A stretch of DNA of 58,555 bases from the NCBI GenBank assembly GCA_022562935.1, contig JADFOI010000003.1:1-58555 (forward strand). The letters run 5' to 3'. Numbering within the stretch: position 1 is the first letter of the stretch; each line of letters opens with the position of its first letter. This DNA comes from Acidobacteriota bacterium (GTDB lineage Bacteria > Acidobacteriota > UBA6911 > RPQK01 > JADFOI01). Position numbers and translations under genes: made by a program. Shown piece by piece: positions 10,424-49,363 of the stretch. The notes under the pieces are model-generated. The model saw only the letters and a list, made by a program, of their open reading frames with translations. It did not search any database and was not told the DNA's origin.

Positions 10424-10479
10424 TGTCTGTTGTCTGTTGTCTGTTGTCAGCTGTCAGCTGTCAGCTGTCAACTGTCTGC
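10424..10479. repeat. Heptamer tandem array, 8 x TGTC(T/A)(G/A)(T/C)
   Basis: tgtctgt x3, tgtcagc x3, tgtcaac, tgtctgc. Confidence 0.95.
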
Positions 10480-10495
10480 GCTCCGGTGGTCAGTC

Positions 10496-11557
10496 ATGAA
10501 AGCAGTGATCATGGCGGGGGGGCAGGGAACTCGTTTCTGGCCCGTGAGCCGTGAAGAAAAACCCAAGCAGTTTATAGCCATAGGCGGCTCCAAAACCATG
10601 TTGCAGGAGACTGCGGCTCGGCTTCAACCGTTTCTGGCAGCGGGAGACGTCTACGTGGTGTGCGGCCAGCGGTACGTCCAGCAGGTTCGCGAGCAGTTGG
10701 ATCAACTCCAGGAAAATCAGATGATTGTCGAGCCCTCAGCCCGAAATACAGCTCCCTGTATCGGACTGGCGGCCCTCTATTTGAGGCGTCAGTTTCCCGA
10801 TGAAGTGATGTCGGTTTTTCCCGCCGATCACGTCATCCAGGATGTGGCCGAGTTTCATCAGGTTCTCCAGGCCGCACAGGAGCTTGCAAGAGAGGGCTGG
10901 CTGGTGACCTTTGGAATCCATCCTTCCTATCCGGCAACGGGCTACGGATATGTGGAGAAAGGGGATCTCCTGGGAGATTTTGCAGGGTGTGCGGCTTATG
11001 AAGTGGCCGGATTTACCGAGAAACCGGATCGTTCTCGGGCGGAGCAGTTCTTAAAAGAGGGTAGATATTATTGGAACAGCGGAATGTTTGTCTGGTCCAT
11101 AGACAGGATTCTGACCGAGATGGAAAAGCATATGCCGGAGTTGTACCAGGCCCTGATGGAAATTGACGATCATTGGGAGGACTCCGTGGGTATGGAAAAG
11201 ATCTACTCGGGGCTTGAGAAGACTTCCATTGACGTGGGTGTGATGGAGAAGGCGGAGAAAATTGCGGTGCTCCCCTGCACACTGGGATGGAGTGATGTGG
11301 GCAACTGGAGAGCATTGGAACAGGTCAAAAAAAGCGATGAGAAAGGAGTGATATCCAACGGTCCCCATGTCAATATCGACAGCCGTGATACTGTTCTCTA
11401 CACCTCAGAGGGTAAATTGATTGCTCTGGTAGGAGTCGAGGATCTGGTGGTGGTGGACGCTCCGGATGCCCTTCTGGTCTGTGCCAGAGAACGCATCGAG
11501 GATGTGAAGCAGGTGGTTGAGCATCTGAAAAAACTGGGCTGGGACGAGTATCTGTAG
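10496..11557 (+). CDS. manC: Mannose-1-phosphate guanylyltransferase
   Basis: MKAVIMAGGQGTRFWPVSR...PKQF, EPSARNTAP, GYGY, FTEKP, WSDVGNW. Confidence 0.93.
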   Translation: MKAVIMAGGQGTRFWPVSREEKPKQFIAIGGSKTMLQETAARLQPFLAAGDVYVVCGQRYVQQVREQLDQLQENQMIVEPSARNTAPCIGLAALYLRRQFPDEVMSVFPADHVIQDVAEFHQVLQAAQELAREGWLVTFGIHPSYPATGYGYVEKGDLLGDFAGCAAYEVAGFTEKPDRSRAEQFLKEGRYYWNSGMFVWSIDRILTEMEKHMPELYQALMEIDDHWEDSVGMEKIYSGLEKTSIDVGVMEKAEKIAVLPCTLGWSDVGNWRALEQVKKSDEKGVISNGPHVNIDSRDTVLYTSEGKLIALVGVEDLVVVDAPDALLVCARERIEDVKQVVEHLKKLGWDEYL

Positions 11558-11558
11558 G

Positions 11559-12674
11559 ATGAGTGAATTACTGGATGATTTAGAGGCGATTGGAAAGCTC
11601 GATACACAGGGGATGTGGGGGATTCTCAACTCCTTTGACCGGCAACTGGAAGAAGCTCTTGAGATCGGGCTGAAAGCGGACATCCCTGCCCCCAAAGCCA
11701 TTCAAAATGTGCTGGTTTGCGGGCTCGGAGGCTCGGCCATTGCCGGAGACTTTCTGAGTGCCTATTTGGGAACTGATTTGAAAGTTCCCCTTTCTGTTCA
11801 CCGCAACTATTCCGTTCCCGGGTTTGCCGATGAGAAAACACTGGCCTTGATTTGTAGTTACTCGGGTAATACTGAGGAAACGCTCTCGGCTTTCCATGGG
11901 GCACGCCAGGCCGGATGCTCGATCATCTGCCTGAGCAGCAATGGTCAGCTCCAGCGTGACGCAGGTCAATATGACTACCCCTTGCTGCAGATTCCGGGAG
12001 ACTTTCCACCTCGGACAGCTTTGGGGTACTTGGCGATTCCCCTGCTTGTCGTTTTGAGCCGGGTTGGCCTGGTTTCAGATCGTTCCGAGCAGATCAGCCG
12101 TTCGGTGAGTTGGGTGCGCAACCGAATCGAAAGGTTCGGCTTGGAAACTCCAGCGGAAGAAAATGCGGCAAAGGCACTGGCTTTGCAGGTGCACCAGAAA
12201 ATTCCGGTGATATACGGAAGTCAGGATCGACTGGAGATGGTTGCCCGAAGGTGGCGGGGGCAATTTTCTGAAAATGCAAAGCAACTGGCCTTCTCCAGCG
12301 CCATACCCGAGATGAATCATAATGAAATCGAGGGCTGGAAGCACCCGGCTCCGGCCCTTCGGCAGTTGATCCCCATATTTCTGCGGGACCGGGAAGACCA
12401 TCCTCAAGTGCAGATTCGGACCGGCATTGCTCGTCAGCTGGTGGGAGACAAGTCCGAGGCCTGTCTGGACTTCTGGACAGAGGGAGAGAGCTGGCTGGAA
12501 CGTTTGTGGTCGTTGATCCTGTTGGGGGATTTTGCCAGCCTCTACCTGGCTGTCTTGAATCGTGAGAATCCCACTCCGGTTCATGTCATTGAGGATTTCA
12601 AGAAGCGCTTAAAAGAGCAGACGGAAAAAGGTCATCAAGGTGGGAATGAACCCGGAAATCTTTCGAGAGTATGA
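11559..12674 (+). CDS. Bifunctional phosphoglucose/phosphomannose isomerase (SIS domain)
   Basis: CGLGGSAIAGD, SYSGNTEETL, PPRTA, ENAKQLA, PEMNHNEIEG. Confidence 0.92.
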   Translation: MSELLDDLEAIGKLDTQGMWGILNSFDRQLEEALEIGLKADIPAPKAIQNVLVCGLGGSAIAGDFLSAYLGTDLKVPLSVHRNYSVPGFADEKTLALICSYSGNTEETLSAFHGARQAGCSIICLSSNGQLQRDAGQYDYPLLQIPGDFPPRTALGYLAIPLLVVLSRVGLVSDRSEQISRSVSWVRNRIERFGLETPAEENAAKALALQVHQKIPVIYGSQDRLEMVARRWRGQFSENAKQLAFSSAIPEMNHNEIEGWKHPAPALRQLIPIFLRDREDHPQVQIRTGIARQLVGDKSEACLDFWTEGESWLERLWSLILLGDFASLYLAVLNRENPTPVHVIEDFKKRLKEQTEKGHQGGNEPGNLSRV

Positions 12675-14834: not shown

Positions 14835-14913
14835 TCTGGATTATACATAGGTTCTTGTCACGAAACGGTGTAGGGGCGAACCGGGACCGTCAGGATTGCA
14901 AAGACTCAGGAAT

Positions 14914-15036
14914 GTGGGAGGCACCTCAGGTGCCGAATCCGAAAAGAATGGGGAAGGAATAAGCGAGAGTTATCTTGTGTTCCACGATAGGAGCTATTTA
15001 GGGATCGAGCTGTTCGGCACCTGAGGTGCCTCCCAT
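14914..15036. repeat. Inverted pair of REP-like palindromes GTGGGA-GGCACCTCAGGTGCC-GA
   Basis: Copies at 14914-14936 (+) and 15014-15036 (-); another at 49275-49297; a variant near 782-800. Confidence 0.8.
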
Positions 15037-15173
15037 ATTCCTGAGGATCTCTGCCATATTCCTGAAGTTCCTCCCAATCGGGGCACCCGCTTGCGGGTCG
15101 AGCAACACGGGCGGTGCAGCACGCCGGATGATTTCGTCACTGCAGTAGAGGATTAATGCATAATCCGGGCTAG
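15013..15173 (-). repeat. CTAG-terminated composite repeat, copy 2
   Basis: Similar to 671-800 (inverted) and 32501-32589 (direct). Confidence 0.75.
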
Positions 15174-15189
15174 ATTATCGGTGATCCCC

Positions 15190-17179: not shown

Positions 17180-17268
17180 CCGACGAAACGTCGGCTAAAG
17201 ACGCGTTCCAGGTTCCAGGTTCCAGTTTTGAATTTGGGATTTTGAATTTCCAGCCGGTCTGCCGGCTG
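17170..17268 (-). repeat. Hairpin-heptamer composite module
   Basis: Minus strand: CAGCCGG-CAGA-CCGGCTG, then (AAATTCA/AAATCCC)n, (CCTGGAA)n, then a perfect 16-bp-arm hairpin at 17170-17204. Confidence 0.85.
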
Positions 17269-17316
17269 GGGTCTCCCGTTTGACTAACTTCCCTGTTCTG
17301 AGTACCTTTGCTCCCC

Positions 17317-18573: not shown

Positions 18574-18574
18574 G

Positions 18575-19552: not shown

Positions 19553-19600
19553 AGAGGGGAGCTGGGGGACTGTCCCCCAACTCCCCTCTTTTCTTTCTAT
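19553..19600 (+). terminator. Probable intrinsic terminator of icd-mdh
   Basis: 17-bp GC-rich stem (one mismatch) at 19553-19589 followed by a T-rich tract that continues as a (TTTTCTA)n array. Confidence 0.6.
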
Positions 19601-19621
19601 TTTCTATTTTCTATTTTCTAT

Positions 19622-19665
19622 TCGTTAGGAACGAAGTTCGTTTTAACGAACTTCGTTCCTAACGA
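19622..19665. repeat. Perfect 21-bp-arm inverted repeat overlapping the lysA stop
   Basis: tcgttaggaacgaagttcgtt-tt-aacgaacttcgttcctaacga. Confidence 0.95.
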
Positions 19666-23305: not shown

Positions 23306-24544
23306 TTGATGTTGGATCGGTGGATCTCGTTCGCTGTCATTGCTGCAGTGGTGAGCTCTTTGTTGTCCATCGCTGTATCGGAGGTCTGCTTTGGCATCGC
23401 TATCTTACTGTGGGTGGCAGATTGCTGGAAATCCAGAGAGTTTCGCCTGAAGATCCCTTCCTTTACTCCTTTCTTGCTGGCCTTTTTTGTAGCCGTATTG
23501 ATCTCGATTGCCTTCTCCACCGATGTCCTTGGCAGCGCCCCTTATCTGAAGAAGTTCATCAAATTTCTCTACATTTTTTTGATCTTTACCTACCTGAATC
23601 GAGAACGGGTGGAGTTCGCTCTCAAAGCGCTGTTTGGGGTTATGGGAATCAGTGCAGTGTACGGCGTCCTGCAGTACTTTTGGTTGTGGGAGGTCAATCT
23701 GCTCCATCGCATTGAGGGATTCATGAGCCACTGGATGACATTCTCGGGACAGTTGATGTTGGTTTCCGTGGCACTGGCGGGGTATCTGCTCCTGTATCGG
23801 TTACCTTTCACTTTAGCTGGGGAAGAAAAGAAAAGTCCTCAAGAGGCGAGTGGGGGAAAGAAGTGGTCGCCTCTAAACATCCTCCCCATAGGAGCCTGGG
23901 GTATGCTGCTGGCCCTTTTCTTGTTTGTGCTGGTTCTGACCCAGACTCGAAACACCTGGTTAGGGACGCTGGGCGGACTATGTTTGCTCCTAGCCGTCTA
24001 TCGGGTCAGGTGGCTGGTGACAGGCGTGGTCCTTCTACTGGTCGTGTTTCTTGCCCTTCCCAGTGGTTTCAAGGAGCGTTTCTATTCCAGTTTTGACCCA
24101 ACCGATACAACGACACGGGTTCGCATTGAGCTGTTCCTGACCGGAAGAAATATCATCGTTGCACATCCCTGGATGGGCTTGGGCCCGAGCATGGTGTCTC
24201 GTCACTTTCACGACTACACTGGAACGGACGAATTTCCCTCTTGGATCTATCAACATCTTCACAACAATTTCTTGCACATCGCCGCTGAGATGGGAGTGAT
24301 CACCCTATTGATTTGGGTGGCCCTGTGGGTTCGTCTGTTCTGGGATTTCGTGGGTTTTGTGAGAGGTCAAGCCTCCGATCGGTTTTTGTCCTGTATCGCG
24401 ATGAGCGGAGTGGGTGTGCTGGCGGCGTTTCTGTTGGCGGGTCTGTTTGAGTATAATTTCGGTGATTCGGAGATTCTGATTTTGCTCCTGTTTTTCATTA
24501 CGATTCCCTATGTGGTCCATGATGAACAGGAAAAAGGCGCTTAA
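23306..24544 (+). CDS. O-antigen ligase family membrane protein
   Basis: Multi-TM; LTQTRNTWLG, RIELF...PWMGLGP, HLHNNFLHIAAEMG. Confidence 0.88.
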   Translation: MMLDRWISFAVIAAVVSSLLSIAVSEVCFGIAILLWVADCWKSREFRLKIPSFTPFLLAFFVAVLISIAFSTDVLGSAPYLKKFIKFLYIFLIFTYLNRERVEFALKALFGVMGISAVYGVLQYFWLWEVNLLHRIEGFMSHWMTFSGQLMLVSVALAGYLLLYRLPFTLAGEEKKSPQEASGGKKWSPLNILPIGAWGMLLALFLFVLVLTQTRNTWLGTLGGLCLLLAVYRVRWLVTGVVLLLVVFLALPSGFKERFYSSFDPTDTTTRVRIELFLTGRNIIVAHPWMGLGPSMVSRHFHDYTGTDEFPSWIYQHLHNNFLHIAAEMGVITLLIWVALWVRLFWDFVGFVRGQASDRFLSCIAMSGVGVLAAFLLAGLFEYNFGDSEILILLLFFITIPYVVHDEQEKGA

Positions 24545-25640
24545 TATTGCCCTTCTGGGGACTCGTGGAATTCCCGCCAACTACGGAGGGTTTGAAACTT
24601 TTGCCGAGGAACTTTCCACTCGTCTGGCGGATCGAGGACACCGGGTTACGGTCTACGGCCGGTCCCACTTTGTCGATCCGAAATTGCGCTCCTATCGTGG
24701 GGTCGACATTCTGCCGCTGTTTTCTGTGCGCACCAAGTATCTGGAGACCGTGACTCATACTTCTCTCTCTGTTTTGATCGCGCTTTTCAAGCCTCATGAT
24801 GTCGTTTTGATCTGCAATGCCGCCAATGCCTTTCTTTGTTGGATCCCCAAGATCGCCGGCCAGAAGGTGGTTCTCAACGTGGATGGTATCGAGCGACGGC
24901 GCCAGAAATGGAGCCGCCTGGGCAAGGCCTACTATCGCATGAGTGAATTCCTCGCCACAATTCTCCCCGATCGAGTGGTGACGGACGCTCGTTCCGTTCA
25001 AGAATACTATCTTAAGGAGTATGGATTTCGTTCCCCGTTTATACCCTACGGTGCTCCGGTCCAGAAGTGCGAAAGTCGTGAAGAGCTGAAAGCCCACGGG
25101 CTCAGTCCTGGAGAATATATTCTCTACGTCAGCCGGCTTGAACCGGAAAACAACGCTCACCTGGTGATCCGGGCCTATATAGAATCTACAATCGATGATC
25201 CGCTGGTTATCGTGGGAGATGCGCCCTATGCCGAAGTATATATCCGCGAACTCAAGCGCCTGGCCGAGGGGAAAAACATTGTGTTTCCGGGAGCCATTTA
25301 TGGTGTCGGCTACCGCGAATTGCTTTCCCATTGTCTGTGCTACATTCACGCAACCGAGGTGGGAGGGACTCACCCGGCTTTGATTGAGGCCATGGGGGCA
25401 GGTTGTCTGGTGTTGGTCAACGAGACGGTTGAGAATCGTGAGGTGGTGGGTGAGGCGGGTTTTCTCTATCCCTTCAACGAGGTGGGGTCCCTGGCTCAGT
25501 CGATCAGGCGGGTCTCGTCCCGACCGCAAGACTACGGGTTGTACAGGGAGCAAGCTCAGCAGCGTGTTCGTGATCGATACGATTGGGACACCGTCGTGAC
25601 TCAGTACGAGGCTATGTTCCATGAACTCACCGTCCATTGA
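24522..25640 (+). CDS. Glycosyltransferase family 4 (GT-B)
   Basis: IALLGTRGIPANYGGFETF, RLEPENN, EVGGTHPALIEAM. Start at 24519 or 24522. Confidence 0.92.
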   Translation: MNRKKALNIALLGTRGIPANYGGFETFAEELSTRLADRGHRVTVYGRSHFVDPKLRSYRGVDILPLFSVRTKYLETVTHTSLSVLIALFKPHDVVLICNAANAFLCWIPKIAGQKVVLNVDGIERRRQKWSRLGKAYYRMSEFLATILPDRVVTDARSVQEYYLKEYGFRSPFIPYGAPVQKCESREELKAHGLSPGEYILYVSRLEPENNAHLVIRAYIESTIDDPLVIVGDAPYAEVYIRELKRLAEGKNIVFPGAIYGVGYRELLSHCLCYIHATEVGGTHPALIEAMGAGCLVLVNETVENREVVGEAGFLYPFNEVGSLAQSIRRVSSRPQDYGLYREQAQQRVRDRYDWDTVVTQYEAMFHELTVH

Positions 25641-25655
25641 ACCGACGGAAAACCC

Positions 25656-26726
25656 ATGAAGAGTGACCCGCGCTACGAACAGGTCCGTCATCCCATACGA
25701 AGCAACAAGGCGGTATTGGTAAGTCTGGTCACCTACAATGACGAGTCTTTTCTGGGCCGGTGTCTGGAAGCGGTGCGAAGCCAAACGATTCGAGTTCGTT
25801 TGAAGATCTTCGACAACGCTTCTCAAGATGGGACTCGGGACATCGCTCAAAGCTTTGGCGTTCAATTCCACGAATCGACAGAGAATTTTGGCTACAGTTT
25901 CGGACACAACTACAACCTTCTGGATGAAGATTTTGACACTGTTCTGCTTCTGAATGCGGACGTGATTTTACAGGCCAATTATCTTGAAATACTTCTGGGC
26001 GTCCTCGACGAAGTCGAAAAAGCGGGGATGGCAGGTGGAAAACTGTATCGAATGGATAGGAAAGGCCGCCAGATTTCACGAAGGACCTTCCCCGTCCTGG
26101 ATAGCACAGGGATGTTCTTTACTCCTTCCCAGAGGCATTTTGACCGGGGAAGTGAAGAAGAAGACCACGGACAGTATGACATCCGTCAATTCGTTTTCGG
26201 TATCAGCGGGGCGACACTCCTGTGCAAGAAAGAAATGCTAGAGGACTTACGCCTTGGGGATGAGTATCTGGATGAAGATTTCTTTGCCTATCGGGAAGAC
26301 GCGGATCTGGCCTGGAGGGCTCAGATGCGGGGCTGGAAGGCGATCTACGAACCGGGAGCTGAGGCCCTGCACTGCCGTCGCGTTCTTCCCAGGGGCAGGA
26401 GATGGCTCCCCGCCCTCATTAATTACCATTCCCTCAAGAATCGCTATCTGATGCGGATGAAAAACCTGGATACCGCGGTGCGACGACGCTGTTTTCCCTA
26501 TATGTGGATTCGGGATGCGGGGATTTTGGTCTATGTCTTGTTTTTTGAGTGGAATTCGCTCCCGGCTTATCGAGAAGTCTGGCGACTTCGGGATAAATTT
26601 AAAAGGAAAAGAGAACACGTTCAGAGCACACGCTCTGTAAGTCCCGATGCCCTCGCCCATTGGTTTTCCTTCACTCCCAGAGCGCTGAGCGCTGAAGGCT
26701 CAACACAGAAAACAGAAAAAAGATAG
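25656..26726 (+). CDS. Glycosyltransferase family 2 (GT-A)
   Basis: VTYN, DNASQD, NFGYSFGHN, LLNADV, YREDADLAWR. Confidence 0.9.
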   Translation: MKSDPRYEQVRHPIRSNKAVLVSLVTYNDESFLGRCLEAVRSQTIRVRLKIFDNASQDGTRDIAQSFGVQFHESTENFGYSFGHNYNLLDEDFDTVLLLNADVILQANYLEILLGVLDEVEKAGMAGGKLYRMDRKGRQISRRTFPVLDSTGMFFTPSQRHFDRGSEEEDHGQYDIRQFVFGISGATLLCKKEMLEDLRLGDEYLDEDFFAYREDADLAWRAQMRGWKAIYEPGAEALHCRRVLPRGRRWLPALINYHSLKNRYLMRMKNLDTAVRRRCFPYMWIRDAGILVYVLFFEWNSLPAYREVWRLRDKFKRKREHVQSTRSVSPDALAHWFSFTPRALSAEGSTQKTEKR

Positions 26727-26735
26727 GAGCCTCTA

Positions 26736-26882
26736 GCGCGCTTCGCGCGCGTTCCAGGCTCCAGGTTCCAGGTCCTAGTTTTGAATTTTGGATTTGGAAT
26801 TTGTTGGGGCCTGAGAATTTTGGATTTTGAATTTCAGCTGAGAGCTGACGGAAGTCAGCTCTCAGCTGTCAGTTCTCAGCTG
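26736..26882 (-). repeat. Hairpin-heptamer composite module between convergent genes
   Basis: Minus strand: (CAGCTGA)-type array, 15-bp-arm hairpin with TTCC loop, (AAATTCA/C)n, (CCTGGAA)n, GCGCGCGAAGCGCGC. Confidence 0.85.
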
Positions 26883-27625
26883 TTCTGCCATGCCTCAAAC
26901 CCACCCTTAAGGGTGTAGACGTTTTGGAATCCCTGCGTCTTTAAGAACTGGGTGGTGGTGAGACTCCGCTGGCCATGCTGGCAGTACACAATGATCTCGC
27001 GATCTCTGGGCCAACTGCTGACGATTTCCTGCCCGAGCTTCTCATCCACCATCAAGGCCCCTTCGATTTTTCCCTGCTCGGCCTCAGAAGGCGCACGCAG
27101 GTCTAAAACGGTCAATTCCGAGTTTTTGGAGATCTGCTGTTTCGCCTCTTCCACGGTAATCTCCAACTTAGCCAGTGGATCGTAGATCTCGACAGATTCA
27201 TCAATCTGTTCTCCGCAATACTTGTCGTAGGCGCTGGTCAGCACCTTAGCCAGAGTTTCCATCGTCTGGCCCTCAATGTGGTGTCTTTCGACGATGTGCA
27301 CGAGCTTGCCATCGCGGAAGACAGCCATGCAGGGGGAGGAGGGGGCATAACCCACGAACAATTCCCTGGCCCGATCCACCGCTTCCACGTCATTGCCGGC
27401 AAAGGCTGTCGTCAGAGTCTGGGGAAGGATCTCATTCTTAAGAGATTCAAGAAGGGCAGGTCTGGCTATCCCGGCAGCGCATCCGCAGACGGAGTTAATA
27501 AAGATCAGTGTTGTGGAGTCCTTTTGGGCTACCAGGGCATCCACGTCTTTAGCCGTGCGTAATTCCTTAAAACCCGCACGGGTCATTTCATCGCGCATGG
27601 GTTGAACCATTTCGGGATCGTACAT
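26876..27625 (-). CDS. BrxA/BrxB (bacilliredoxin, DUF1094) fused to a C-terminal rhodanese domain
   Basis: MYDPEMVQPMRDE...NSVCGCAAG...PSSP...ERHHIEG; then LDLR...IIVYCQHGQRS...LKGGFEAW. Confidence 0.88.
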   Translation of the reverse strand: MYDPEMVQPMRDEMTRAGFKELRTAKDVDALVAQKDSTTLIFINSVCGCAAGIARPALLESLKNEILPQTLTTAFAGNDVEAVDRARELFVGYAPSSPCMAVFRDGKLVHIVERHHIEGQTMETLAKVLTSAYDKYCGEQIDESVEIYDPLAKLEITVEEAKQQISKNSELTVLDLRAPSEAEQGKIEGALMVDEKLGQEIVSSWPRDREIIVYCQHGQRSLTTTQFLKTQGFQNVYTLKGGFEAWQNS

Positions 27626-28084: not shown

Positions 28085-28195
28085 GACCACAGACCACAGC
28101 CGGAAGAGCGGCTGAAATCCAGAAGCTCAAATTCCAAATTCCAAAGATATTCCAAATTCAAAACGGGAACCTGCATAAACGCGCGCGAAGCGCGC
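28085..28195 (+). repeat. Hairpin-heptamer composite module
   Basis: (GACCACA)2, CAGCCGGAAGAGCGGCTG, (AAATTCC/AAATTCA)n, GCGCGCGAAGCGCGC. Confidence 0.85.
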
Positions 28196-28285
28196 TGGGG
28201 GAGTTTGGTGCTAGCCCCAAGGATTTTCCTTTGAATACAGGGGTTTACGCCAGAATTCTGGGACTGTCCCAGAAATGAATTTTTT

Positions 28286-29353
28286 CTATTTTCTTTTTTC
28301 CATTTTCTGTGCTGAGCGCGTTGCACTCAGCGCTAAGTTTGGGTCGGCTATCAGACTCCAGGGATCACTTGCTCCCGGCCGAAGTCGAGCAGCAGCGGCG
28401 ATCATGGCGGCGTTATCCGTGGTCAACTCGGATCGAGGATAGTAAACGGCGAGGTCCTGTTGTTGGAAGGTATCCGTGGCCCGCCGGCGCAATTCGCTAT
28501 TGCAGGAAACTCCCCCTGAGATTTGAATGGAACGGACCTCTCGCCCTTTCAGTGACTGCTTCAAGCGGTGCAGGAGTTGATCGATGATGGAGCTTTGATA
28601 GCTGGCCAACAGATCCAAAATCTCTTGGGGTATGTCTTGGAGAGGATCTGAGGCCTCTCTATCCAGCCGAGAAATGTTGTGCTCGGTCATATAACGTAAG
28701 GCGGCGGTTTTGATGCCACTGAAACTGAAATCAAGGCTTCCGTCGCTGATCTTCGGTATCGAAAAGGGGACAGCTTTCGGATCCCCTTGAGGTGCCAGTC
28801 GATCGATGACCGGGCCCCCTGGGTAGCCTAGGCCCAGGTATTTGGAGAGCTTGTCCAGAGCTTCCCCGGCGGCATCATCTCGAGTTCTGGATAGCTCCTG
28901 ATAGTCGCCCAACTCCTTCAGGTAGAACAGGCTGGTGTGTCCTCCCGATACCACCAAAGAAAGGGCCGGCAGTTCCGCCTCGGGATGATCGAGAAAAATG
29001 GAACAGATATGTCCCTCCAGGTGATTGATTCCCACGAAAGGGATCTTCAATGCGTAGGCCAGGCCCTTGGCATAAGTCAGGCCCACCAACAGGGCCCCCA
29101 TGAGACCGGGTCCCTGGGTCACTGCAAGGGCCTCGACTTGTGTCCAGGTGAGGCTTGCCTCCTTGAGGCATTGCTCGGTGACGAAACAGATGTTCTCGAC
29201 ATGCTCACGGCTTGCCAGTTCCGGAACCACGCCGCCAAAATCCGCATGAATAGAAATCTGTGAGGCCACCACGCTGGAGAGGATGGTTTGGCCGTCTTTC
29301 ACAAGGGCGGCGGTTGTCTCGTCACAGCTGGACTCAATACCCAGAACAATCAT
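28286..29353 (-). CDS. tsaD: tRNA N6-threonylcarbamoyltransferase
   Basis: [48 protein letters not shown]. Confidence 0.96.
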
Positions 29354-30381: not shown

Positions 30382-30404
30382 GGCCCAACCTTACAATAGG
30401 AGGA

Positions 30405-30553
30405 AACAACAGACAACAGACAATAGCCAACAGCCGGCAGACCGGCTGAAATTCAAAATTCAAGATTCCAAATTCAAAACGAATTCCTTTTTTCTTTTTT
30501 CTGCGCGCGAAGCGCGCTGAGACCGCAGACCAGCTGATGGCGCGAAAGCTGAC
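30405..30553 (+). repeat. Hairpin-heptamer composite module
   Basis: (ACAACAG)n, CAGCCGGCAGACCGGCTG (30431-30448), (AAATTCA)n, GCGCGCGAAGCGCGC (30503-30517). Confidence 0.85.
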
Positions 30554-32389: not shown

Positions 32390-32589
32390 GGCGAGCCAGT
32401 GGCTCGCCCGAACAGTTAGGATGGCACCCGCTCGTGGTAGGACGCAGTCAGAGCCGTGGGCTTTAGCCCACGGGCCAGCCGCTGACCCCTAGGGAGGCCA
32501 GGGGCACCCGCTTGCGAGTCGCGCAGTCGGTGCAGCACGCCGGATGGTTTTGCTGCTGTAGTAGAGAATTTATGAATAGTTCCGGCTAG
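32389..32589. repeat. Cluster of REP-like palindromes plus CTAG-terminated repeat copy 3
   Basis: GTAG-GGCGAGCCAGTGGCTCGCC; CCGTGGGCTTTAGCCCACGG; 32501-32589 similar to 15081-15173. Confidence 0.7.
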
Positions 32590-32605
32590 AGAAAGGACGA
32601 GAAGC

Positions 32606-34089: not shown

Positions 34090-34293
34090 ATGACGGTTAA
34101 GATCCCAAAACAGTTTGACAGTAAATTCAGGTTTATTCTGGTGGCCGCAGAACGTGCCAAGCAGCTCCAGCATGGAGCACCTCCAAGAATCAAGTCTCAG
34201 TCAAGAAAGCCGGCTACGATCGCTGTGGAGGAGGTGGAGCAAAACCTTGTTCCTTTTGTCATTCTCAAGCCGGGGAAAAGAAAAGAAAAGTGA
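34090..34293 (+). CDS. rpoZ: RNA polymerase omega subunit
   Basis: DSKFRFILVAAERAKQLQHGA; position between gmk and coaBC. Confidence 0.92.
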   Translation: MTVKIPKQFDSKFRFILVAAERAKQLQHGAPPRIKSQSRKPATIAVEEVEQNLVPFVILKPGKRKEK

Positions 34294-35522
34294 AAATTAT
34301 TCTCGCTGTAACCGGTTGCATCGGAGCCTATAAGTCGGCCGTCGTCCTCCGCCTGTTGCAAAAAGAGGGTTTTGAGATCCTTCCGGTCATGACTCAGGCT
34401 GCCCAACAGTTTATTACCCCCCTGACTTTGGAGAAGCTGTCCGGTCACAAGGTGGTTTCCGATCTATTCAGCGATCATACCGTTCAAATTGAGCATATCC
34501 ATCTGGCTCGAGAGAGTCATCTCCTGCTGGTGGCCCCGGCTACCGCCAATATCCTGGCCAAATTTGCCCAGGGCATCGCCGATGATTTCTTGAGTACGCT
34601 TTACCTGTCCACCGTCACACCCGTCATCGTTGCACCTGCCATGAATGTTGAGATGTGGCACCATAAAGCCACGCGGAAGAACCTGGAGATTCTGAGGGAA
34701 AGAGGAGTGGAGGTGGTGGAACCCGGCTCCGGCTATCTCGCCTGCGGGGAAGAGGGCGAAGGGCGTTTAGCAGAGCCCGAACATATCTTGGAGGCGGTGT
34801 TGAACACTTTCAGGCGGGAGAAATCTCTGCTGGGAAAGAGGGTGCTCATTACCGCAGGACCCACCATTGAGGACCTGGATCCGGTTCGGTTTATTTCCAA
34901 TCGCTCCTCCGGAAAGATGGGTTATGCCCTGGCCGGGGAGGCTCAGTCGCGGGGTGCTCAGGTGGTGCTGGTCTCAGGACCTACCCAACTTGAACCTCCG
35001 GAAGGGGTAAATCTGGTCCGGGTTCGCTCTGCTTCAGAGATGGCCAAAGCTGTCTTTCAGCACTTTGCCCGTTCCGATGTGGTGGTGATGGCAGCAGCGG
35101 TTTCCGATTTCACTCCAGCCAATGTCTCCTCAGAAAAGATAAAAAAGAAAGATGCGAAGCCGGTCATCCACCTGGAGAAAACGGTGGATATCCTGAAGCG
35201 ACTGGGTCAGCGAAAAGAGTGGCAATTTGTGGTCGGATTTGCTGCTGAATCGGGAGCAGTGCGGGAGAATGCCCGTAGGAAGCTTCAGGAAAAGGGATTG
35301 GACCTGATTGTAGGAAACGATATCTCCCCACAGGATCAAGGCTTTGAATCCGATTTCAACCAGGTCATCGTCATCGATAGTGACGGGAAGGAAGAGGAAT
35401 TTCCTCTCCTCCCCAAGACGGATGTGGCACGCATCCTCTGGGATAAAATTGAAACGCGCTGCGCGCAAAGAGCCGCAAACCGCAGACCACAGACCGTAGA
35501 CCACATACCGCAGACCGGCTGA
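34290..35522 (+). CDS. coaBC: Bifunctional phosphopantothenoylcysteine decarboxylase/synthetase
   Basis: VTGCIGAYK, APATAN, PAMNVEMW, LACGEEGEGRL, TAGPTIEDLDPVRFISNRSSGKMG, GFAAE. Confidence 0.97.
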   Translation: MKIILAVTGCIGAYKSAVVLRLLQKEGFEILPVMTQAAQQFITPLTLEKLSGHKVVSDLFSDHTVQIEHIHLARESHLLLVAPATANILAKFAQGIADDFLSTLYLSTVTPVIVAPAMNVEMWHHKATRKNLEILRERGVEVVEPGSGYLACGEEGEGRLAEPEHILEAVLNTFRREKSLLGKRVLITAGPTIEDLDPVRFISNRSSGKMGYALAGEAQSRGAQVVLVSGPTQLEPPEGVNLVRVRSASEMAKAVFQHFARSDVVVMAAAVSDFTPANVSSEKIKKKDAKPVIHLEKTVDILKRLGQRKEWQFVVGFAAESGAVRENARRKLQEKGLDLIVGNDISPQDQGFESDFNQVIVIDSDGKEEEFPLLPKTDVARILWDKIETRCAQRAANRRPQTVDHIPQTG

Positions 35523-35634
35523 ATGGATGTCGCCACGTATTGAGTGTCTTAACTTCTGGATCCTGGATTCTCGTTCTGTCGGGACTCTGACTCCTCAAGT
35601 TCTGTTTGCGGTCTGTGGTCTGCGGTCTGTGGTC
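35479..35634. repeat. Inverted pair of ACC(G/A)CAG heptamer arrays
   Basis: 5 units at 35479-35513 inside the coaBC 3' end; 4 complementary units at 35607-35634. Confidence 0.9.
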
Positions 35635-35646
35635 TGTTGAATCGTC

Positions 35647-36627
35647 ATGCCCAAATCAGGTCTCGTTGCCCTCATCGGCCGCCCCAACGTGGGTAAATCC
35701 ACCCTTCTCAATCGACTGGTCGGACAAAAAGTAGCCATCGTCAGCAATAAGCCTCAGACTACACGCAATCGAATTATTGGGGTTCAAACAACCGAAGAAT
35801 GCCAGATGATTTTCCTGGACACGCCCGGAATTCATCGTCCCGGACACCTTTTGAACAAACGGATGATGGAGGAAGTTTATGATTCACTCAGAGGGGTCGA
35901 TCTGCTGGTTCAGGTTGTGGATGTCTCTGAGAGGTATGGGAAGGGAGAAAAGTTTGTCCTGAACCTGGTTCAGAAGACCCAGAAACCGACCATTCTGGCC
36001 CTCAATAAGATCGATCTCATCAGCAAGGGCAAGATTCTTCCCGTACTTGAATTTTACAATCAGCAGTTTGAGTATGAAGAGATGATCCCCCTTTCCGCCC
36101 ACAAGGGGGATAATTTCGAGTTGCTTCGGGAGAAAATCGTAGAGAATCTGCCGGAAGGGGAGTGGCTCTACCCTTCTGAGTACATCACCGATCAACCGGA
36201 ACGATTCATGGTCTCAGAAATCATTCGCGAAAAGGTGTTAAACCACACTCGGCAGGAACTTCCCTACTCGACAGCGGTTCTGGTGGAGGTCTTCGATGAA
36301 TCCAGGAGGCAGAAGGGATTCATGTCGATTACAGCCTCCATCATAGTGGATAAAGGCAGCCATAAAAGGATCGTGATTGGTCGGGCCGGGCAGATGGTTA
36401 AAACAATTGGCACAGAAGCACGGGTGGATCTCCAGGATTTTCTGGATGTACCCAAGCTCTACCTTGATTTGAACGTTAAGGTCCTCTCAGGATGGAGAGA
36501 TCAGGCGCATTTGTTGGATGAGTTGGGTGTCAGGTCCGCGAATTATACTCAGGAACTAAGCATAGACAACAGACTACGGACAACAGAGCGGAAGATGGAA
36601 GTTGGAAGTCAGAATCCAGAAGAATAG
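35647..36627 (+). CDS. era: GTPase Era
   Basis: GRPNVGKSTL, KPQTTRN, DTPG, NKID, KH domain with QELPYS and IVIGRAG. Confidence 0.97.
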   Translation: MPKSGLVALIGRPNVGKSTLLNRLVGQKVAIVSNKPQTTRNRIIGVQTTEECQMIFLDTPGIHRPGHLLNKRMMEEVYDSLRGVDLLVQVVDVSERYGKGEKFVLNLVQKTQKPTILALNKIDLISKGKILPVLEFYNQQFEYEEMIPLSAHKGDNFELLREKIVENLPEGEWLYPSEYITDQPERFMVSEIIREKVLNHTRQELPYSTAVLVEVFDESRRQKGFMSITASIIVDKGSHKRIVIGRAGQMVKTIGTEARVDLQDFLDVPKLYLDLNVKVLSGWRDQAHLLDELGVRSANYTQELSIDNRLRTTERKMEVGSQNPEE

Positions 36628-36699
36628 GAAGCTCAACGCTTCTTAACGGCTTCTTACTTTCGTCTGCTATTGGGTCTGTGGTCTGTGGTTTGTTGAATC

Positions 36700-37351: not shown

Positions 37352-37432
37352 CAGCCGGAAGACCGGCTGAAATTCAAAATTCAAAATCCCAAACTAGAAC
37401 CTGGAACCTGAATTCCGAAATCAAAACTTGGA
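37352..37432 (+). repeat. Hairpin-heptamer composite module
   Basis: CAGCCGGAAGACCGGCTG, (AAATTCA)n, (CCTGGAA)-type units. Confidence 0.85.
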
Positions 37433-42139: not shown

Positions 42140-42197
42140 CCCCTACCCTCGCTTTCCGAGGTCGGAACTGTCTGGAAGAAAGGACCCGTCCAACTAG

Positions 42198-43079: not shown

Positions 43080-43365
43080 CCGCTGACGGCCAGCCATCAG
43101 CGGAAATTCAAAATTCAAAACTCCAAATTCCAAACAAATTCAAAATACCAAACACAAAACCACAGCCGGAAGACCGGCTGAAATCCGAAATCCAGAATCC
43201 CACATCCGAAACGTGACTTCTTCCCATGTCTCCTATCCCCCTTTCCCTCGTCTGTAGTCGCAGTTGTTTCGAATTTTGAATTTGAAATTTTGAATTTGGA
43301 GTTTTGAATTTCAGCCGGTCTTCCGGCTGTGTCTTCCGTCAGCTGTTAGTTGTCAGCTGTCAGCT
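43080..43365. repeat. Largest hairpin-heptamer cluster (two head-to-tail modules plus one inverted)
   Basis: Hairpins at 43080-43103, 43163-43180 and 43312-43329 (inverted), each flanked by AAAT(T/C)C-type 7-mers; CTGTCAG array at the end. Confidence 0.88.
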
Positions 43366-43383
43366 TCTGTAGTAAGCTTGGCT

Positions 43384-44127: not shown

Positions 44128-44140
44128 AACGGAGGAGTAG

Positions 44141-45796
<1,656 letters not shown>

Positions 45797-45890
45797 CCTA
45801 TCCGTCCATTGTATCTTGGGGGTGGGTTGTTGGTATCATTCCAGGGTCGTAATCCTTATCCATGACCGGGAACTGATAGCTGGACGATCG

Positions 45891-46736
45891 ATGACACCAA
45901 CCTCCGTTATTCCCCTGGGCCAGTGGAAACTTGGCGGTAACAACCCTTTCTTTTTAATTTCAGGCCCCTGCGTGATTGAGAGCGAGCCGCACTGTATGGA
46001 AATGGCCGGGCGCTTAAAGGAGATCACTGCCCGCCTCAAGATCCCCTTTATTTTCAAGGCCTCATACGATAAGGCCAATCGTACCTCCATTCACTCTCAT
46101 CGGGGTCCTGGCTTGGAGAAGGGTCTTGAGATTCTCCAGAAGGTGGGTCAAGAGTTACAAATACCCGTGACCTCGGATGTCCATGAGGTGAACCAGGTCG
46201 AACCCGCGGCTCAGGTTCTGGATATGCTGCAGATTCCGGCCTTTCTCTCCCGGCAAACCGACTTAATTCAGGCCGCCGCCGCTACCGGAAGGATCGTCAA
46301 TATCAAGAAAGGCCAGTTTCTGGCCCCCTGGGATGTTCAGCATGTTGTGGAAAAAGCTCAGTCGGCGGGGGCTGCTGGAATCATCCTCACCGAGCGAGGC
46401 GTCTCCTTCGGCTACAATAACCTGGTGACGGATTTCAAGGCTCTTCCCATCATGAGAGCCTTGGGCGTTCCGGTTGTCTTTGACGCCACTCACAGCGTAC
46501 AGTTACCGGGTGGGGCAGGGGGTTGGAGCGGCGGTCAGGCCGAGTTTATCCCTCATTTGGCAAGGGCAGCAGTGGCAGTGGGAACGGATGGCCTGTTTAT
46601 CGAAGTCCATGATCATCCCGAGAAGGCCTTGAGTGACGGCGCCAATGCCTTGCAAATCGATGAGGTGGAGAACGTCTTAAGTCAGTTACAGGAAATTGAC
46701 CAGCTGGTGAAAGAGCAGCTGACAGCTGACAACTGA
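45891..46736 (+). CDS. kdsA: KDO 8-phosphate synthase
   Basis: GPCVIES, FKASYDKANRTS, QIPAFLSRQT, KKGQFLAP, DATHSVQLPG, SDG. Confidence 0.96.
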   Translation: MTPTSVIPLGQWKLGGNNPFFLISGPCVIESEPHCMEMAGRLKEITARLKIPFIFKASYDKANRTSIHSHRGPGLEKGLEILQKVGQELQIPVTSDVHEVNQVEPAAQVLDMLQIPAFLSRQTDLIQAAAATGRIVNIKKGQFLAPWDVQHVVEKAQSAGAAGIILTERGVSFGYNNLVTDFKALPIMRALGVPVVFDATHSVQLPGGAGGWSGGQAEFIPHLARAAVAVGTDGLFIEVHDHPEKALSDGANALQIDEVENVLSQLQEIDQLVKEQLTADN

Positions 46737-46744
46737 CAACTACG

Positions 46745-47704
46745 ATGTCTCAGGAAACCGGGCGTAAAGTCTTACAGATTGAAGCGGATGCCATCTCGAG
46801 TCTGATCCCGCGGCTTGGAGAATCCTTCGATCGCGCCGTGGAATTGTTGGCCAACTGCAAGGGTCGGGTGGTGGCCACGGGAATGGGGAAGTCGGGCATC
46901 GTTTGCAGGAAAATTGCCGCCACATTCAGCAGTACCGGTACGCCATCGGTGTTTCTTCACCCGGCCGAGGCGGTTCACGGGGATGTGGGGATGCTCACCA
47001 GCCAGGATGTGGTGCTGGCCCTCTCCAACAGTGGCGAAACGGAGGAGCTGGTGAAGTTGGTGGCGACCATCAAGCGTTTGGGCATTCCCTTGATCTCCAT
47101 GGTGGGCAACACCGATTCCACGCTGGCTAGAAGTGCGGATCTGGTGCTGGATGTTGGGGTGGACCGGGAAGCCTGTCCCTTGGGACTGGCACCGACCGCT
47201 TCCACCACCGCCTCCATGGCCCTCGGAGACGCTTTGGCTCTGTCTCTCTCTGAGAAAAGAGGATTTCATATGGAGGATTTTGCTCGCCTGCACCCCGGCG
47301 GGAGACTGGGTAAGAAGCTGGCAAAGGTGGGGGAACTGATGCATCGCGGAGAGAAAATTCCCAAGGTGACCGAGGAGACGGGAATGGATGCGGTGATTTA
47401 CGAGATGTCGAAAAAGGGTCTGGGCATTACCAGTGTTGTGGCAGAAGATGATCGCCTGGTTGGAGTGATTTCGGATGGAGATTTGAGAAGATTGCTTCAA
47501 GATGAGCGCGAAAAGATACTCTCCAGGACCGCCAGCCAGTGTATGACCAAGAATCCCTTGACCATTAACGAGGATGAGCTCGCTACAGGTGCGCTCCACC
47601 TCATGGAGCAAAAAAAGATCACTTCTTTGATGGTTACGGATGCCTCTGAGAAAGTCATCGGGATTATCCACCTGCATGATCTCTGGGGAATGGAGATGTT
47701 TTAG
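46745..47704 (+). CDS. kdsD: Arabinose 5-phosphate isomerase (KpsF/GutQ, SIS plus CBS)
   Basis: TGMGKSG, HPAEAVHGDVG, SNSGET, APTASTT, HPGG.LG, CBS pair. Confidence 0.95.
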   Translation: MSQETGRKVLQIEADAISSLIPRLGESFDRAVELLANCKGRVVATGMGKSGIVCRKIAATFSSTGTPSVFLHPAEAVHGDVGMLTSQDVVLALSNSGETEELVKLVATIKRLGIPLISMVGNTDSTLARSADLVLDVGVDREACPLGLAPTASTTASMALGDALALSLSEKRGFHMEDFARLHPGGRLGKKLAKVGELMHRGEKIPKVTEETGMDAVIYEMSKKGLGITSVVAEDDRLVGVISDGDLRRLLQDEREKILSRTASQCMTKNPLTINEDELATGALHLMEQKKITSLMVTDASEKVIGIIHLHDLWGMEMF

Positions 47705-47707
47705 ACG

Positions 47708-48265
47708 ATGACCTCATTACCGGATCAAGTCGTGGATAAGCTTCGAAAGATTCGCCTGATCTTATTGGACGTGGATGGTGTGTTGACGGACGGGCGTATT
47801 GGTTTGCTTCCCGGTGGTGAAGAAATCAAGTTCTTCTCTGTTTATGACGGACTGGCTATTCGACTGGCCATGAAGGTGGGCTGGGAGGTCGGTTTTCTCA
47901 GTGGACGCACCAGTGAGGAAGTGTCGGCTCGGGCCCGAGAGTTGGGTATTGAAATTGTCGTCCAGGGCTCTCGAGACAAAGTAGGGGATTTTGAAAAGAT
48001 TCTGAAGGACAGAAACCTGCAAGCCTCGGAAGTTGTCTATATGGGCGATGATCTTCCCGATCTCCCCCTGCTGAAGAGGGTAGGATTTTCTGCCGCTCCT
48101 GGCAACGCCGTGGAATCCGTCAAGCGTGCTGTTCACTACGTTACCAGCGAGAAAGGCGGTGGCGGGGCCGTTCGCGAAGTGGTGGATCTGATGCTTAAAA
48201 CCACCGGTAAGTGGGAAAACATCGTCGAAGAACTGGATAAAACGGGAACCGTGCCGTCGGGTTAA
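47708..48265 (+). CDS. kdsC: KDO 8-phosphate phosphatase (HAD)
   Basis: LDVDGVLTDG, SGR, YMGDDLPD, GGGAVRE. Confidence 0.94.
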   Translation: MTSLPDQVVDKLRKIRLILLDVDGVLTDGRIGLLPGGEEIKFFSVYDGLAIRLAMKVGWEVGFLSGRTSEEVSARARELGIEIVVQGSRDKVGDFEKILKDRNLQASEVVYMGDDLPDLPLLKRVGFSAAPGNAVESVKRAVHYVTSEKGGGGAVREVVDLMLKTTGKWENIVEELDKTGTVPSG

Positions 48266-48277
48266 GGGAAGAGAGAA

Positions 48278-49201
48278 GTGGCGGATTTTCCCAGTTGCTA
48301 CGATCCTGATCGTATAGGCACTCTCTTCTACCCGGATGTAGCGGCCCTGGCCCAGGAGGCAGCTCGAGCCGGGTTGCCTCCCGCCTCCCAGGATCAACAG
48401 CGAATTCAGCTGTTGATCATTGACATGCAGGTGGACTTTTGCCACCCCCAGGGCACCCTTTATGTACCCGGTGCCCTACAGGATATCCGGCGCCTGGTCG
48501 AATTTATCTATCGAAATGCCGGGCGCATCAGCAGCATCACTTGTTCTTTGGACTCTCACCTGCCCCACCAGATTTTTCATCCAGCCTGGTGGGCCGATCC
48601 AGAGGGTCATCACCCCGCTCCTTTTACCCTCATCACCCAGGAGGATCTCAGGCAAGGAAAGTGGCGTCCCTTGCTCGAGCCTGAGTGGTCTACAGCTTAT
48701 GTCCGAAAGCTCGAGGAAGGTGCCAAGAAACAGCTCACGATCTGGCCTTACCATGTCCCCATTGGAGGTATCGGCAATGCCCTGGATCCCGAGTTATGGT
48801 CGGCCGTGTTCTGGCATTCCATAGCCCGCAAGAGTCAGCCCACCTGGTGGAGGAAGGGAAGTATTCCCAAAACGGAACATTACTCGATCGTTCAGCCAGA
48901 GATCCCCGTTGCGGAGGTTCCTGAGGGGGGGAGAGGCTCTTTTCTGGAGGACCTGGAGAAGGATGACGTCATCATCATTGCCGGCGAGGCGGCAAGCCAC
49001 TGTGTTCTGGAAACCCTTGAAGATCTGGTGGATGAGTTTGCCGACAAGCCAGAGACGCTGGACAAAATCTTCATCCTTCGGGACTGTACTTCACCGGTTC
49101 AGCATCCGGATATCGATTTTGCCGCCCTGACGAAGACAAGGTTCTCCGCCTTCGAAAAACAGGGGATTCATTTCATCCTCAGTACCGATCCGCTGCCCTG
49201 A
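48278..49201 (+). CDS. Cysteine hydrolase, nicotinamidase/isochorismatase-like (long form)
   Basis: LLIIDMQVDF (Asp), DSH, IWPYH, RKG (Lys), AGEAASHCV (Cys). Confidence 0.82.
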   Translation: MADFPSCYDPDRIGTLFYPDVAALAQEAARAGLPPASQDQQRIQLLIIDMQVDFCHPQGTLYVPGALQDIRRLVEFIYRNAGRISSITCSLDSHLPHQIFHPAWWADPEGHHPAPFTLITQEDLRQGKWRPLLEPEWSTAYVRKLEEGAKKQLTIWPYHVPIGGIGNALDPELWSAVFWHSIARKSQPTWWRKGSIPKTEHYSIVQPEIPVAEVPEGGRGSFLEDLEKDDVIIIAGEAASHCVLETLEDLVDEFADKPETLDKIFILRDCTSPVQHPDIDFAALTKTRFSAFEKQGIHFILSTDPLP

Positions 49202-49363
49202 GCGCGCTTCGCGCGCGTTCGATCTTTGTAGGGGTCAGCCACCAAACTCCCCCACCCCGAGGCACCTCCGGAATGTGGGAGGCACCTCAGGTGCCGAACG
49301 GCCCTGAGGCCGCTCCCCCATCTTCCCAATCAGGCGATCTTCTGTCAGCTGTCAGTTGTCAGT
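49202..49363. repeat. Repeat cluster between convergent genes
   Basis: GCGCGCTTCGCGCGC, REP-like 49275-49297, CTGTCAG/TTGTCAG heptamers. Confidence 0.8.

Follow-up and report, generated by a model that had tools for sequence, protein, structure and literature searches.

Reports of tandem arrays of seven-base units in bacteria go back to 1990, and a 2007 survey by Mrazek and co-workers reportedly found heptanucleotides to be the commonest long simple repeat and advanced slippage as the source; to our knowledge their origin is unexplained, polymerase slippage being the sole idea on offer. Elhai et al. reportedly found in 2008 that, among the small dispersed repeats of Nostoc punctiforme, compact hairpins often lie within tandem heptameric repeats, and no gene-bearing master copy is known to have been described for them. 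Intervening sequences of 23S rRNA that carry an S23p/PF05635 open reading frame (ORF) are known from Leptospira and Coxiella. Here, we describe heptamer and octamer arrays in a 58,555-nt stretch of DNA (the window; contig JADFOI010000003.1 of the Acidobacteriota bacterium assembly GCA_022562935.1), and we lean towards the reading that such arrays are the arms, intact, decayed or rearranged, of hairpin cassettes that are built around a small PF05635 gene and form a lineage-restricted family.

Described heptanucleotide arrays include GGGAATC in Xanthomonas (PMC4692102), TAACTGA in Beggiatoaceae (PMC4679880) and the short tandemly repeated repetitive (STRR) sequences of the cyanobacteria Calothrix and Nostoc. 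Like these long simple sequence repeats (SSRs), the arrays studied here are short (typically three to six copies), strongly intergenic, lineage-specific and of several families, with inverted pairs frequent in convergent spacers and with lengths and sequences that vary between close relatives. Unlike them, they belong to an uncultured Acidobacteriota genus, stand in a fixed mosaic with two hairpins, include 8-mer families and are tied to a PF05635 cassette, a link not found in full-text literature searches. They lie in another phylum than the repeats of N. punctiforme and differ from them in sequence. The cassette itself recalls the 23S rRNA intervening sequences with an S23p ORF (noted in PMC10053308), since inverted flanks make up a long stem whose loop holds a small four-helix-bundle PF05635 gene; it differs in lying between protein-coding genes, in having arms of tandem 7- or 8-mers and in its hundreds of gene-less derivatives. 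Bacterial interspersed mosaic elements (BIMEs) and hairpin-forming pairs of repetitive extragenic palindromic (REP) sequences (REPINs) of enterobacteria and pseudomonads (PMC2817692, PMC3116915) are likewise mosaic non-coding hairpin repeats; they too are specific to lineages, lie for the most part at gene ends in both orientations and are less common in foreign DNA. Here, however, the blocks are tandem heptamers and not 20–40-nt palindromic units, and the REP-associated tyrosine transposase (RAYT) genes of the genome serve other REP families.

Census of tandem arrays

The window, labelled contig C154, is part of a metagenome-assembled genome (MAG; G000) of 3.44 Mb in 188 contigs, with 54% G+C. 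All counts given for G000 are lower bounds, the MAG being 89% complete and fragmented, with contig ends often in repeats; arrays of this kind disrupt short-read assemblies. The MAG yielded no rRNA gene. The CTP synthase of the window is nearest to proteins of uncultured Acidobacteriota (93% to one MAG, 79% to “Acidobacteriota bacterium bin48”). Comparisons drew on the seven genomes of the genus (G000–G006), on a sister genus (G012–G014) and on further genomes of the order, among them G029 from another family. Genes were called as crude longest ORFs and tandem arrays by Tandem Repeats Finder, and chance levels were taken from a third-order Markov simulation (whole genome) or from ten simulations (intergenic DNA).

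A first-pass annotation, made from the letters of the window alone, had reported heptamer arrays in its core spacers and called for a census by unit length. Tandem Repeats Finder returned a period-7 array at every place named, and ~30 such arrays within 10.3–49.4 kb of the window. Genome-wide, 538 period-7 rows were called against 70 in the simulation, and intergenic DNA alone held 324 (simulated mean 4.8, maximum 9); this DNA makes up 11% of the genome and holds 70% of its period-7 bases, and the median copy number of period-7 arrays is 3.6. The proposed preference for seven is borne out against periods 5 and 6 (3 and 10 intergenic rows only), but period 8 is also ~20-fold in excess (117 rows against ~6 simulated), and periods 14 (73 against ~1) and 11 (54 against ~6) exceed their simulations as well. 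Octamer arrays of NTCGTGCN and GGTCAGGN are plentiful elsewhere in G000. The period-7 excess is real and large, yet not exclusive to seven. With at least three head-to-tail copies above chance, an intergenic location and several lineage-specific families, the arrays belong with the STRR-like heptanucleotide tandem repeats of prokaryotes.

The excess is also lineage-specific: the genus has it, and most other families of the order lack it. Per 100 kb, G000 has 15.6 period-7 rows, G003 12.1 and G005 12.0, against 4.0, 2.0 and 0 in three other families and 1–3.5 in simulations. In a BLAST search with window positions 43080–43377, each of six same-genus genomes gave matches at 29–51 places; the other members of the family gave few, and the remainder of the order almost none.

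PF05635 cassettes with array arms

We denote the unit families by letter: O (8-mers), W (GTTCCAG), K (AGAAAAT), T (TTTTGAA/TTTGGGA), G (GGTCTGY) and S (TGTCAGY), with H1 (GCGCGC-N3-GCGCGC) and H2 (CAGCCGG-N4-CCGGCTG) for two hairpins. The sole PF05635 gene of G000 lies on contig C77 (25553–25942, minus strand; 118 bits to PF05635, 110 bits to TIGR02436, “four helix bundle protein”), and none lies inside the window. A W array adjoins its stop codon (25522–25553), and complementary W arrays (W′) stand at 26020–26045 and 26107–26128, each followed by H1, so that the gene sits between inverted arms capable of forming a stem. The cassette is placed between protein-coding genes and not in a 23S rRNA gene. 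Read on the minus strand, the order is H1, W, gene, W′, which is the start of the gene-less mosaic described below with a gene inside. The window arrays have the H1–W junction of this cassette, and their unit families W, S, T and 8-mers recur in cassettes of the genus.

This arrangement recurs among relatives. The PF05635 family, named “23S rRNA intervening-sequence protein”, occurs in 19 of 31 genomes of the order, and among 30 loci fetched in 20 genomes, an array of period 6–8 lay within 200 nt in 27 and on both sides in 15, with 12 of the 15 pairs complementary. Control genes from the same genomes (n = 3037) had an array beside them in 23.4% of cases and on both sides in 2.5% (p = 2e-14 and 8e-17, respectively). 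Within the genus, the cassette arms use the families of the window: W in G000, G004 and G002; S in G003 and G002; T in G001; G, weakly, in G004; and 8-mers in G006, G001 and G009. The two cassettes of G003 have AGGAGTC/CTCCTAC arms and S arms, units that are among the commonest in its arrays.

PF05635 genes and arrays go together across genomes. The number of PF05635 genes correlates with the density of period-7 and period-8 arrays (Spearman 0.80, p = 3e-5; Mann-Whitney p = 4e-4) in 19 related genomes whose kinship is uncorrected. Densities per 100 kb are 3–29 in genomes with the gene and 0–1 in nine of 11 without it, the exceptions to the correlation being G005 (array-rich, no PF05635 gene, 93% complete) and G010. 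The sister genus shows the contrast at short range: G012 has neither gene nor arrays, whereas G013 and G014 have five genes and 12–29 arrays per 100 kb. The first-pass annotation had pointed to a host-specific process, and the lineage-specific excess (12.0–15.6 rows per 100 kb in the genus against 0–4 elsewhere) agrees with that; the factor that tracks the arrays, however, is the PF05635 cassette and not an evident property of replication.

The whole cassette is mobile as a unit, being present or absent at one orthologous site. It occupies the C77 site in G000 and G004 and is missing in G003, G002 and G001 (gaps of 66–102 nt), with other repeats there in G006; a 72%-identical cassette stands elsewhere in G002. 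From these sequence comparisons we infer that the gene-less modules descend from cassettes, rather than cassettes having landed in existing arrays. A full cassette would consist of the small PF05635/TIGR02436 four-helix-bundle gene between two inverted arrays of 7- or 8-base units, and most copies in G000 would be gene-less mosaics of 8-mers, the GCGCGC hairpin, GTTCCAG or AGAAAAT, TTTTGAA, the CAGCCGG hairpin, and GGTCTGY or TGTCAGY. Such copies are gained and lost fast in spacers, mostly downstream of genes and in either orientation, with unit number probably shifting by slippage too. In G000, they outnumber gene-bearing copies by hundreds to one.

Several points weigh against this reading. 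G000 has one PF05635 gene for ~300 array-bearing spacers, and G005 is array-rich without the gene, so arrays persist in its absence. K arrays were not seen as cassette arms, H2 has no evident place in the cassette, and the genomes behind the correlation are related and uncorrected for phylogeny. Comparison of filled with empty sites at the 17180, 37333 and 43080 spacers and at C77 revealed neither target-site duplications nor terminal inverted repeats. Cassettes might instead insert into, home to or be kept beside arrays of other origin, for example slippage.

An autonomous master copy was also sought in G000 and rejected, as none of the multicopy gene families has modules on either side of it as a pair. 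PF05635 proteins resemble Avd of diversity-generating retroelements (PMC10053308). Reverse transcriptase (PF00078, RVT_1), however, had no match in G000–G006, G013 or G014, and no pair of template and variable repeats was seen; a retroelement mechanism is therefore unsupported despite the likeness to Avd, and we rejected both membership in that class and spread by reverse transcription. Elsewhere in the order, G029 has 62 RVT_1 matches, including ~45 near-identical 449-aa ORFs (for example, C4:1075815–1076477), in an apparent burst of a retroelement resembling group II introns; this genome has four PF05635 genes and few arrays in the 100 kb sampled.

The nearest solved relative of the C77 protein is PDB 2GSC (XCC0516 of Xanthomonas campestris); this entry and 2RLD, another of the closest solved structures, have five chains each. 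GGGAATC heptamer arrays have been described in X. campestris as well (PMC4692102). A broader proposal, which we hold to be doubtful, would make PF05635 cassettes widespread, undescribed mobile elements without reverse transcriptase or known transposase, with 7- or 8-mer arms because a pentameric protein reads one unit per subunit, and with gene-less copies as the source of the heptanucleotide excess in cyanobacteria, Xanthomonas, Acidobacteriota and others. One unit per subunit of a pentamer would fit the usual three to five units per array. As arrays in this order track a cassette with same-unit arms, “why seven?” becomes a question that can be put to the test on a single protein family and its hairpin.

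A fixed mosaic of units around two hairpins

The period-7 rows of G000 are far from arbitrary in sequence: 93% lie within one mismatch of eight unit classes, and the class cores are 90–96% conserved with one or two wobble positions, as in GTT[C/T]CA[G/A], TGTC[A/T]G[T/C], GGTCTG[C/T] and TCGTGCN[G/T]. Alignment of the 57 perfect genome copies of H2 revealed one composite element of fixed order, namely 8-mers; H1; W or K; T with a TTTGTTTGGGA joint; H2; and G or S. Neighbour counts give W followed by T 41 times, T by H2 56, H1 by W 34, H1 by K 18, K by T 14 and H2 by G or S 19, with reversed orders nearly absent. Given this shared order and the conserved units, the six heptamer families listed by the first-pass annotation are parts of a single element, in which both the length and the sequence of the unit are favoured. 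Its claim that unit length is favoured over unit sequence survives between species, where the dominant units differ while the period stays 7 or 8, but not within G000, with its eight conserved families strictly ordered round two hairpins and its period-8 excess. The dominant units are CAGGAGG, AGGAGTC and CTCCTAC in G003 and GGTCAGGT 8-mers in G005, and in the sister genus G014 reaches a period-7 density of 27.8 with units AAATCCG and CACGTTT, G012 having none in 111 kb.

These patterns bear on polymerase slippage in situ, under which the replisome of the lineage would slip by ~7 bases, arrays would form in place and PF05635 cassettes would insert in or next to them. The idea draws on the general prevalence of heptanucleotide repeats, given in two papers as the commonest long SSR class in many prokaryotes with slippage as the proposed cause (PMC4679880, PMC4692102), on the differing unit numbers of orthologous arrays, on a period that is kept while units differ between species, and on G005, which has arrays and no PF05635 gene. 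Slippage should, however, yield arbitrary units, not eight families in fixed order with two specific hairpins, and adjacent W units are as unlike as units of different arrays (1.32 and 1.35 mismatches, respectively), which is no slippage signature. Entire modules are, moreover, present or absent at orthologous sites, and sister lineages with presumably similar replication machinery lack arrays (G012 compared with G013 and G014). We regard slippage as improbable as the origin of the arrays.

The same conservation would suit selected cis-elements, whether as RNA stems cut by RNase III, as 3′-end stabilisers or terminators, or as platforms for a nucleoid or oligonucleotide-binding (OB)-fold protein, with the PF05635 protein a possible binding partner. 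Unit cores vary at one or two positions only, and W can pair with T through G.U on the strand with the TCTG loop (z = −3.3, −8.6 and −4.0). K-type modules, by contrast, fold no better than shuffles (z = −0.45), an Rfam scan of the window returned two tRNAs and nothing else, and most spacers, even whole conserved 20-kb stretches, have no arrays. A reading of the wobble positions as RNA structure was rejected separately: by a count worked by hand from unit frequencies, transitions compatible with pairing (G1>A, C5>T, A6>G) are no more frequent than disruptive ones (T2>C, T3>C), both being rare.

Placement speaks on both sides of this alternative. In its favour, the share of G000 spacers with arrays is 22% where the flanking genes converge, 15% where they are co-directional and 9% where they diverge, yet the modules point either way with respect to these genes, without bias (H2: 13 same, 16 opposite). 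A role as terminators was rejected, since terminator-like sites number 31 against 22.5 ± 5.4 in shuffles and H2 lacks a U-tract. One spacer of the window, at 30382, keeps arrays in three species, whereas orthologous spacers in general turn over fast and empty sites are common, as set out below. A function selected in cis seems to us unlikely to explain the arrays. In G003, whose chromosome is closed, there are only ~5 T–H2 junctions, too few for a test of strand bias along it.

Arrays of the window and their turnover

The window holds seven mosaic modules and a number of solo arrays:

10424–10479, plus strand: S array, TGTCTGT x3 then TGTCAGC x4, directly after the stop codon of the M16 peptidase gene and overlapping a mechanically called TTG start at 10430
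17205–17268, plus strand: module of W (GTTCCAG x3, 17205–17225), T (TTTTGAA/TTTGGGA, 17226–17249) and H2 (CAGCCGGTCTGCCGGCTG, 17251–17268)
19590–19622, minus strand: K array of AGAAAAT, reading TTTTCTA x4, adjoining a GC-rich hairpin in a convergent spacer
26680–26885, plus strand: full mosaic of K (26705–26723), H1 (GCGCGCTTCGCGCGC, 26736–26750), W (26751–26778), T (26779–26834), a long palindrome and TCAGCTC/TGTCAGT (26855–26883)
28085–28308, minus strand: mosaic of an H2 variant (28097–28114), T (28128–28163), H1 (28181–28195) and K (TTTTCTA, 28280–28308)
30406–30517, minus strand: mosaic in a divergent spacer, with H1 (30503–30517), K (30487–30502), T (30449–30479), H2 (30431–30448) and S as ACAACAG (30406–30433)
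35473–35637, no single strand: inverted pair of G arrays ~90 nt apart, ACCGCAG/ACCACAG (35473–35517) in the 3′ end of a called ORF and GGTCTGY (35607–35637)
36673–36693, plus strand: solo G array, GGTCTGT x3
37352–37407, minus strand: module of H2 (37352–37369), T (37370–37393) and W (37394–37407)
43104–43365, no single strand: two head-to-head modules, the first with T′ (43104–43161), H2′ (43163–43180) and a GAAATCC array (43180–43211), the second with T (43267–43311), H2 (43312–43329) and S (43338–43365)
46716–46741, minus strand: S array reading CTGACAA/CAGCTGA, spanning the kdsA stop codon and the 8-nt spacer to kdsD
49202–49364, plus strand: convergent spacer with H1 (49202–49216), a REP copy of a RAYT-linked family (49270–49295) and an S array (49343–49364)

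Tandem Repeats Finder placed AAATTCA at 28128–28145, 30449–30479, 37370–37387 and 43104–43146, the TGTCTGT/TGTCAGC array near the M16 peptidase gene at 10424–10476, TTTTCTA at 19594–19622 and 28282–28308, and GTTCCAG (the CCTGGAA of the first-pass annotation) at 17205–17225 and 26751–26773. The tract reported to drift in sequence at period 7 from 43181 onward is the GAAATCC array of 43180–43211. The reported GGAAGT(T/C) family comes down to a tract at 36590–36609 that is weak (2.9 copies, score 33), intragenic and without a genome-wide family.

Turnover was followed in 14 window spacers, compared with orthologues in four genomes of the genus and anchored in flanking genes 76–96% identical. Orthologous spacers are almost wholly remade, even where the flanking genes are 85–95% identical; empty sites occur, and unit number varies between orthologous arrays. 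The module at 17205–17268, in which W pairs with T through G.U on the given strand (z = −3.3), faces an empty 36-nt spacer in G003, and the K array at 19590 faces a 4-nt spacer without array in G005. Likewise, the module at 37352–37407 is missing in G005 and G003, where the spacers measure 31 and 8 nt, respectively. The full mosaic at 26680–26885 has a fold z of −8.6. The mosaic at 30406–30517 is retained in G005 with other copy numbers, and G003 has CAGGAGG x12 around the same H1; at the inverted G pair (35473–35637), G005 has an inverted pair of 8-mer arrays. The first T′–H2′ block at 43104 is an extra insertion relative to G004, beside an AAATCC array that G004 has alone, and the kdsA–kdsD spacer has five array layouts in five genomes.

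A further alternative takes the modules for REP/BIME-type elements under the control of a RAYT (Y1 transposase), or for miniature inverted-repeat transposable elements (MITEs) moved by a conventional transposase. A preference for gene ends is typical of such elements, the mosaic layout recalls BIMEs, and G000 has three Y1_Tnp genes and several hairpin families. Two of the three Y1 genes, however, are flanked by other REP families (GGCACCTCAGGTGCC and CCCAGGG-N5-CCCTGGG) and the third by none, so that no Y1_Tnp gene stands beside H1, H2 or arrays. Nor is any multicopy gene bordered by modules on both sides, and terminal inverted repeats and target duplications were not seen at the four sites compared above. 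The modules were accordingly placed neither with REP/BIME/REPIN elements nor with MITEs, and we consider mobilisation by such transposases very improbable. The cassette reading would ascribe the same turnover to gene-less copies of the PF05635 element.

In several places arrays enter coding ends: the kdsA stop codon lies in an S array, a G array forms the last ~15 codons of ORF 34290–35522, and an S array lies over the called start at 10430. Gene ends may be reshaped by arrays running into them at these sites (46716–46741, 35473–35517 and 10424–10479). A 469-aa minus-strand ORF at 24498–25907 overlaps plus-strand ORFs at 24510–25640 and 25656–26726, which continue a plus-strand row of glycan genes. 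The plus-strand pair are probably the real genes, in which case the array at 26705–26723 lies in the last codons of a gene.

Flanks of the window

The first-pass annotation had found no arrays in the two ends of the window (1–6.4 kb and 54.4–58.5 kb), which it took for islands, and had suggested that their absence marks recently acquired DNA. Two tRNA genes bound the array-rich part:

6370–6445, minus strand: tRNA-Val, left edge of the array-rich syntenic block
54366–54440, plus strand: tRNA-Gly, right edge of the syntenic block

The stretch syntenic with G003 and G005 begins at 6527 and, for G005, ends near 54225, so the flanks of the window are variable DNA; the break beside tRNA genes relative to close relatives is that of a genomic island. 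Composition is not atypical, the coding tetranucleotide distance standing at the 68th percentile for 1–6000 and at the 85th for 6001–12000 (left-side windows only were scored). The core carries ordinary genes of housekeeping and of the envelope: lysA, priA, pyrG and metH, genes for an M16 peptidase and for GDP-mannose and KDO synthesis, and a member of the isocitrate/isopropylmalate dehydrogenase family.

The emptiness of the flanks largely holds. On the left, the only tract in 1–6.4 kb is at chance level and inside an ORF (4269–4289, score 35), and none was called after 49364. The right flank also has, at 57500–57530, a lone palindrome, ACTGTCAG-TT-CTGACAGT, followed by TGTCAA, which is a single S-type unit pair below threshold; this flank is thus not wholly free of the motifs. 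Array-bearing spacers number 0 of 11 in the flanks and 10 of 20 in the core (Fisher p = 0.005). Against the genome-wide rate of 15.7%, the flank count is unremarkable (P = 0.15), the unusual figure being the high count of the core (p = 4e-4). At the same locus, the flanks of G005 are without arrays and those of G003 carry them.

Across the genome, 6-kb windows were ranked by coding tetranucleotide distance: of the 174 spacers in the most atypical tenth, 11 have arrays, compared with 244 of the 1455 spacers in the other windows (odds ratio 0.33, p = 1.5e-4). This ~3-fold rarity, with the loss of synteny beyond the tRNA genes, favours the suggestion. Against it, 45% of 6-kb windows have no tract at all, conserved core DNA included, and four relatives conserve, largely in synteny, the array-poor 20-kb stretches of C166 and C179; arrays are, moreover, clustered by contig (chi-square p = 3e-9). 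The absence of arrays is a weak statistical tendency and no diagnosis of an island, which makes arrays a weak marker of resident as opposed to foreign DNA, of use for bulk statistics and not for calling single islands. Under the cassette reading, their rarity in foreign DNA would probably reflect build-up with residence time.

Other dispersed repeats

Further repeat families share these spacers. The REP family GGAATGTGGGAGGCACCTCAGGTGCC flanks a Y1/RAYT-like gene of G000 on both sides (C21:31729–32259) and has single or paired copies in the window at 14909–15041 and 49270–49295, and a second RAYT gene (C21:13317–13883) is flanked by CCCAGGG-N5-CCCTGGG palindromes. An element of ~275 bp with terminal inverted repeats TAAGTGTCTCGTTCCATAAATACG ... 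CGTATTTATGGAACAAGACACTAAC was found in G000 at C179:24977–25256 (L153:9977–10256) and also at C166:33182–33355; it has dozens of matches in each of four same-genus genomes, well over 100 in all, at 76–96% identity, and looks like a very successful MITE. Finally, the window spacers at 14835–15180 and 32390–32605 end in a common block of ~100 nt (..GGCACCCGCTTGCG.GTCG..GCAGCACGCCGGATG..CTGCAGTAGAG.ATT.ATG.ATA.TCCGGGCTAG), and similar blocks occur in relatives in either orientation, in the same and in other spacers, as a further dispersed repeat family.

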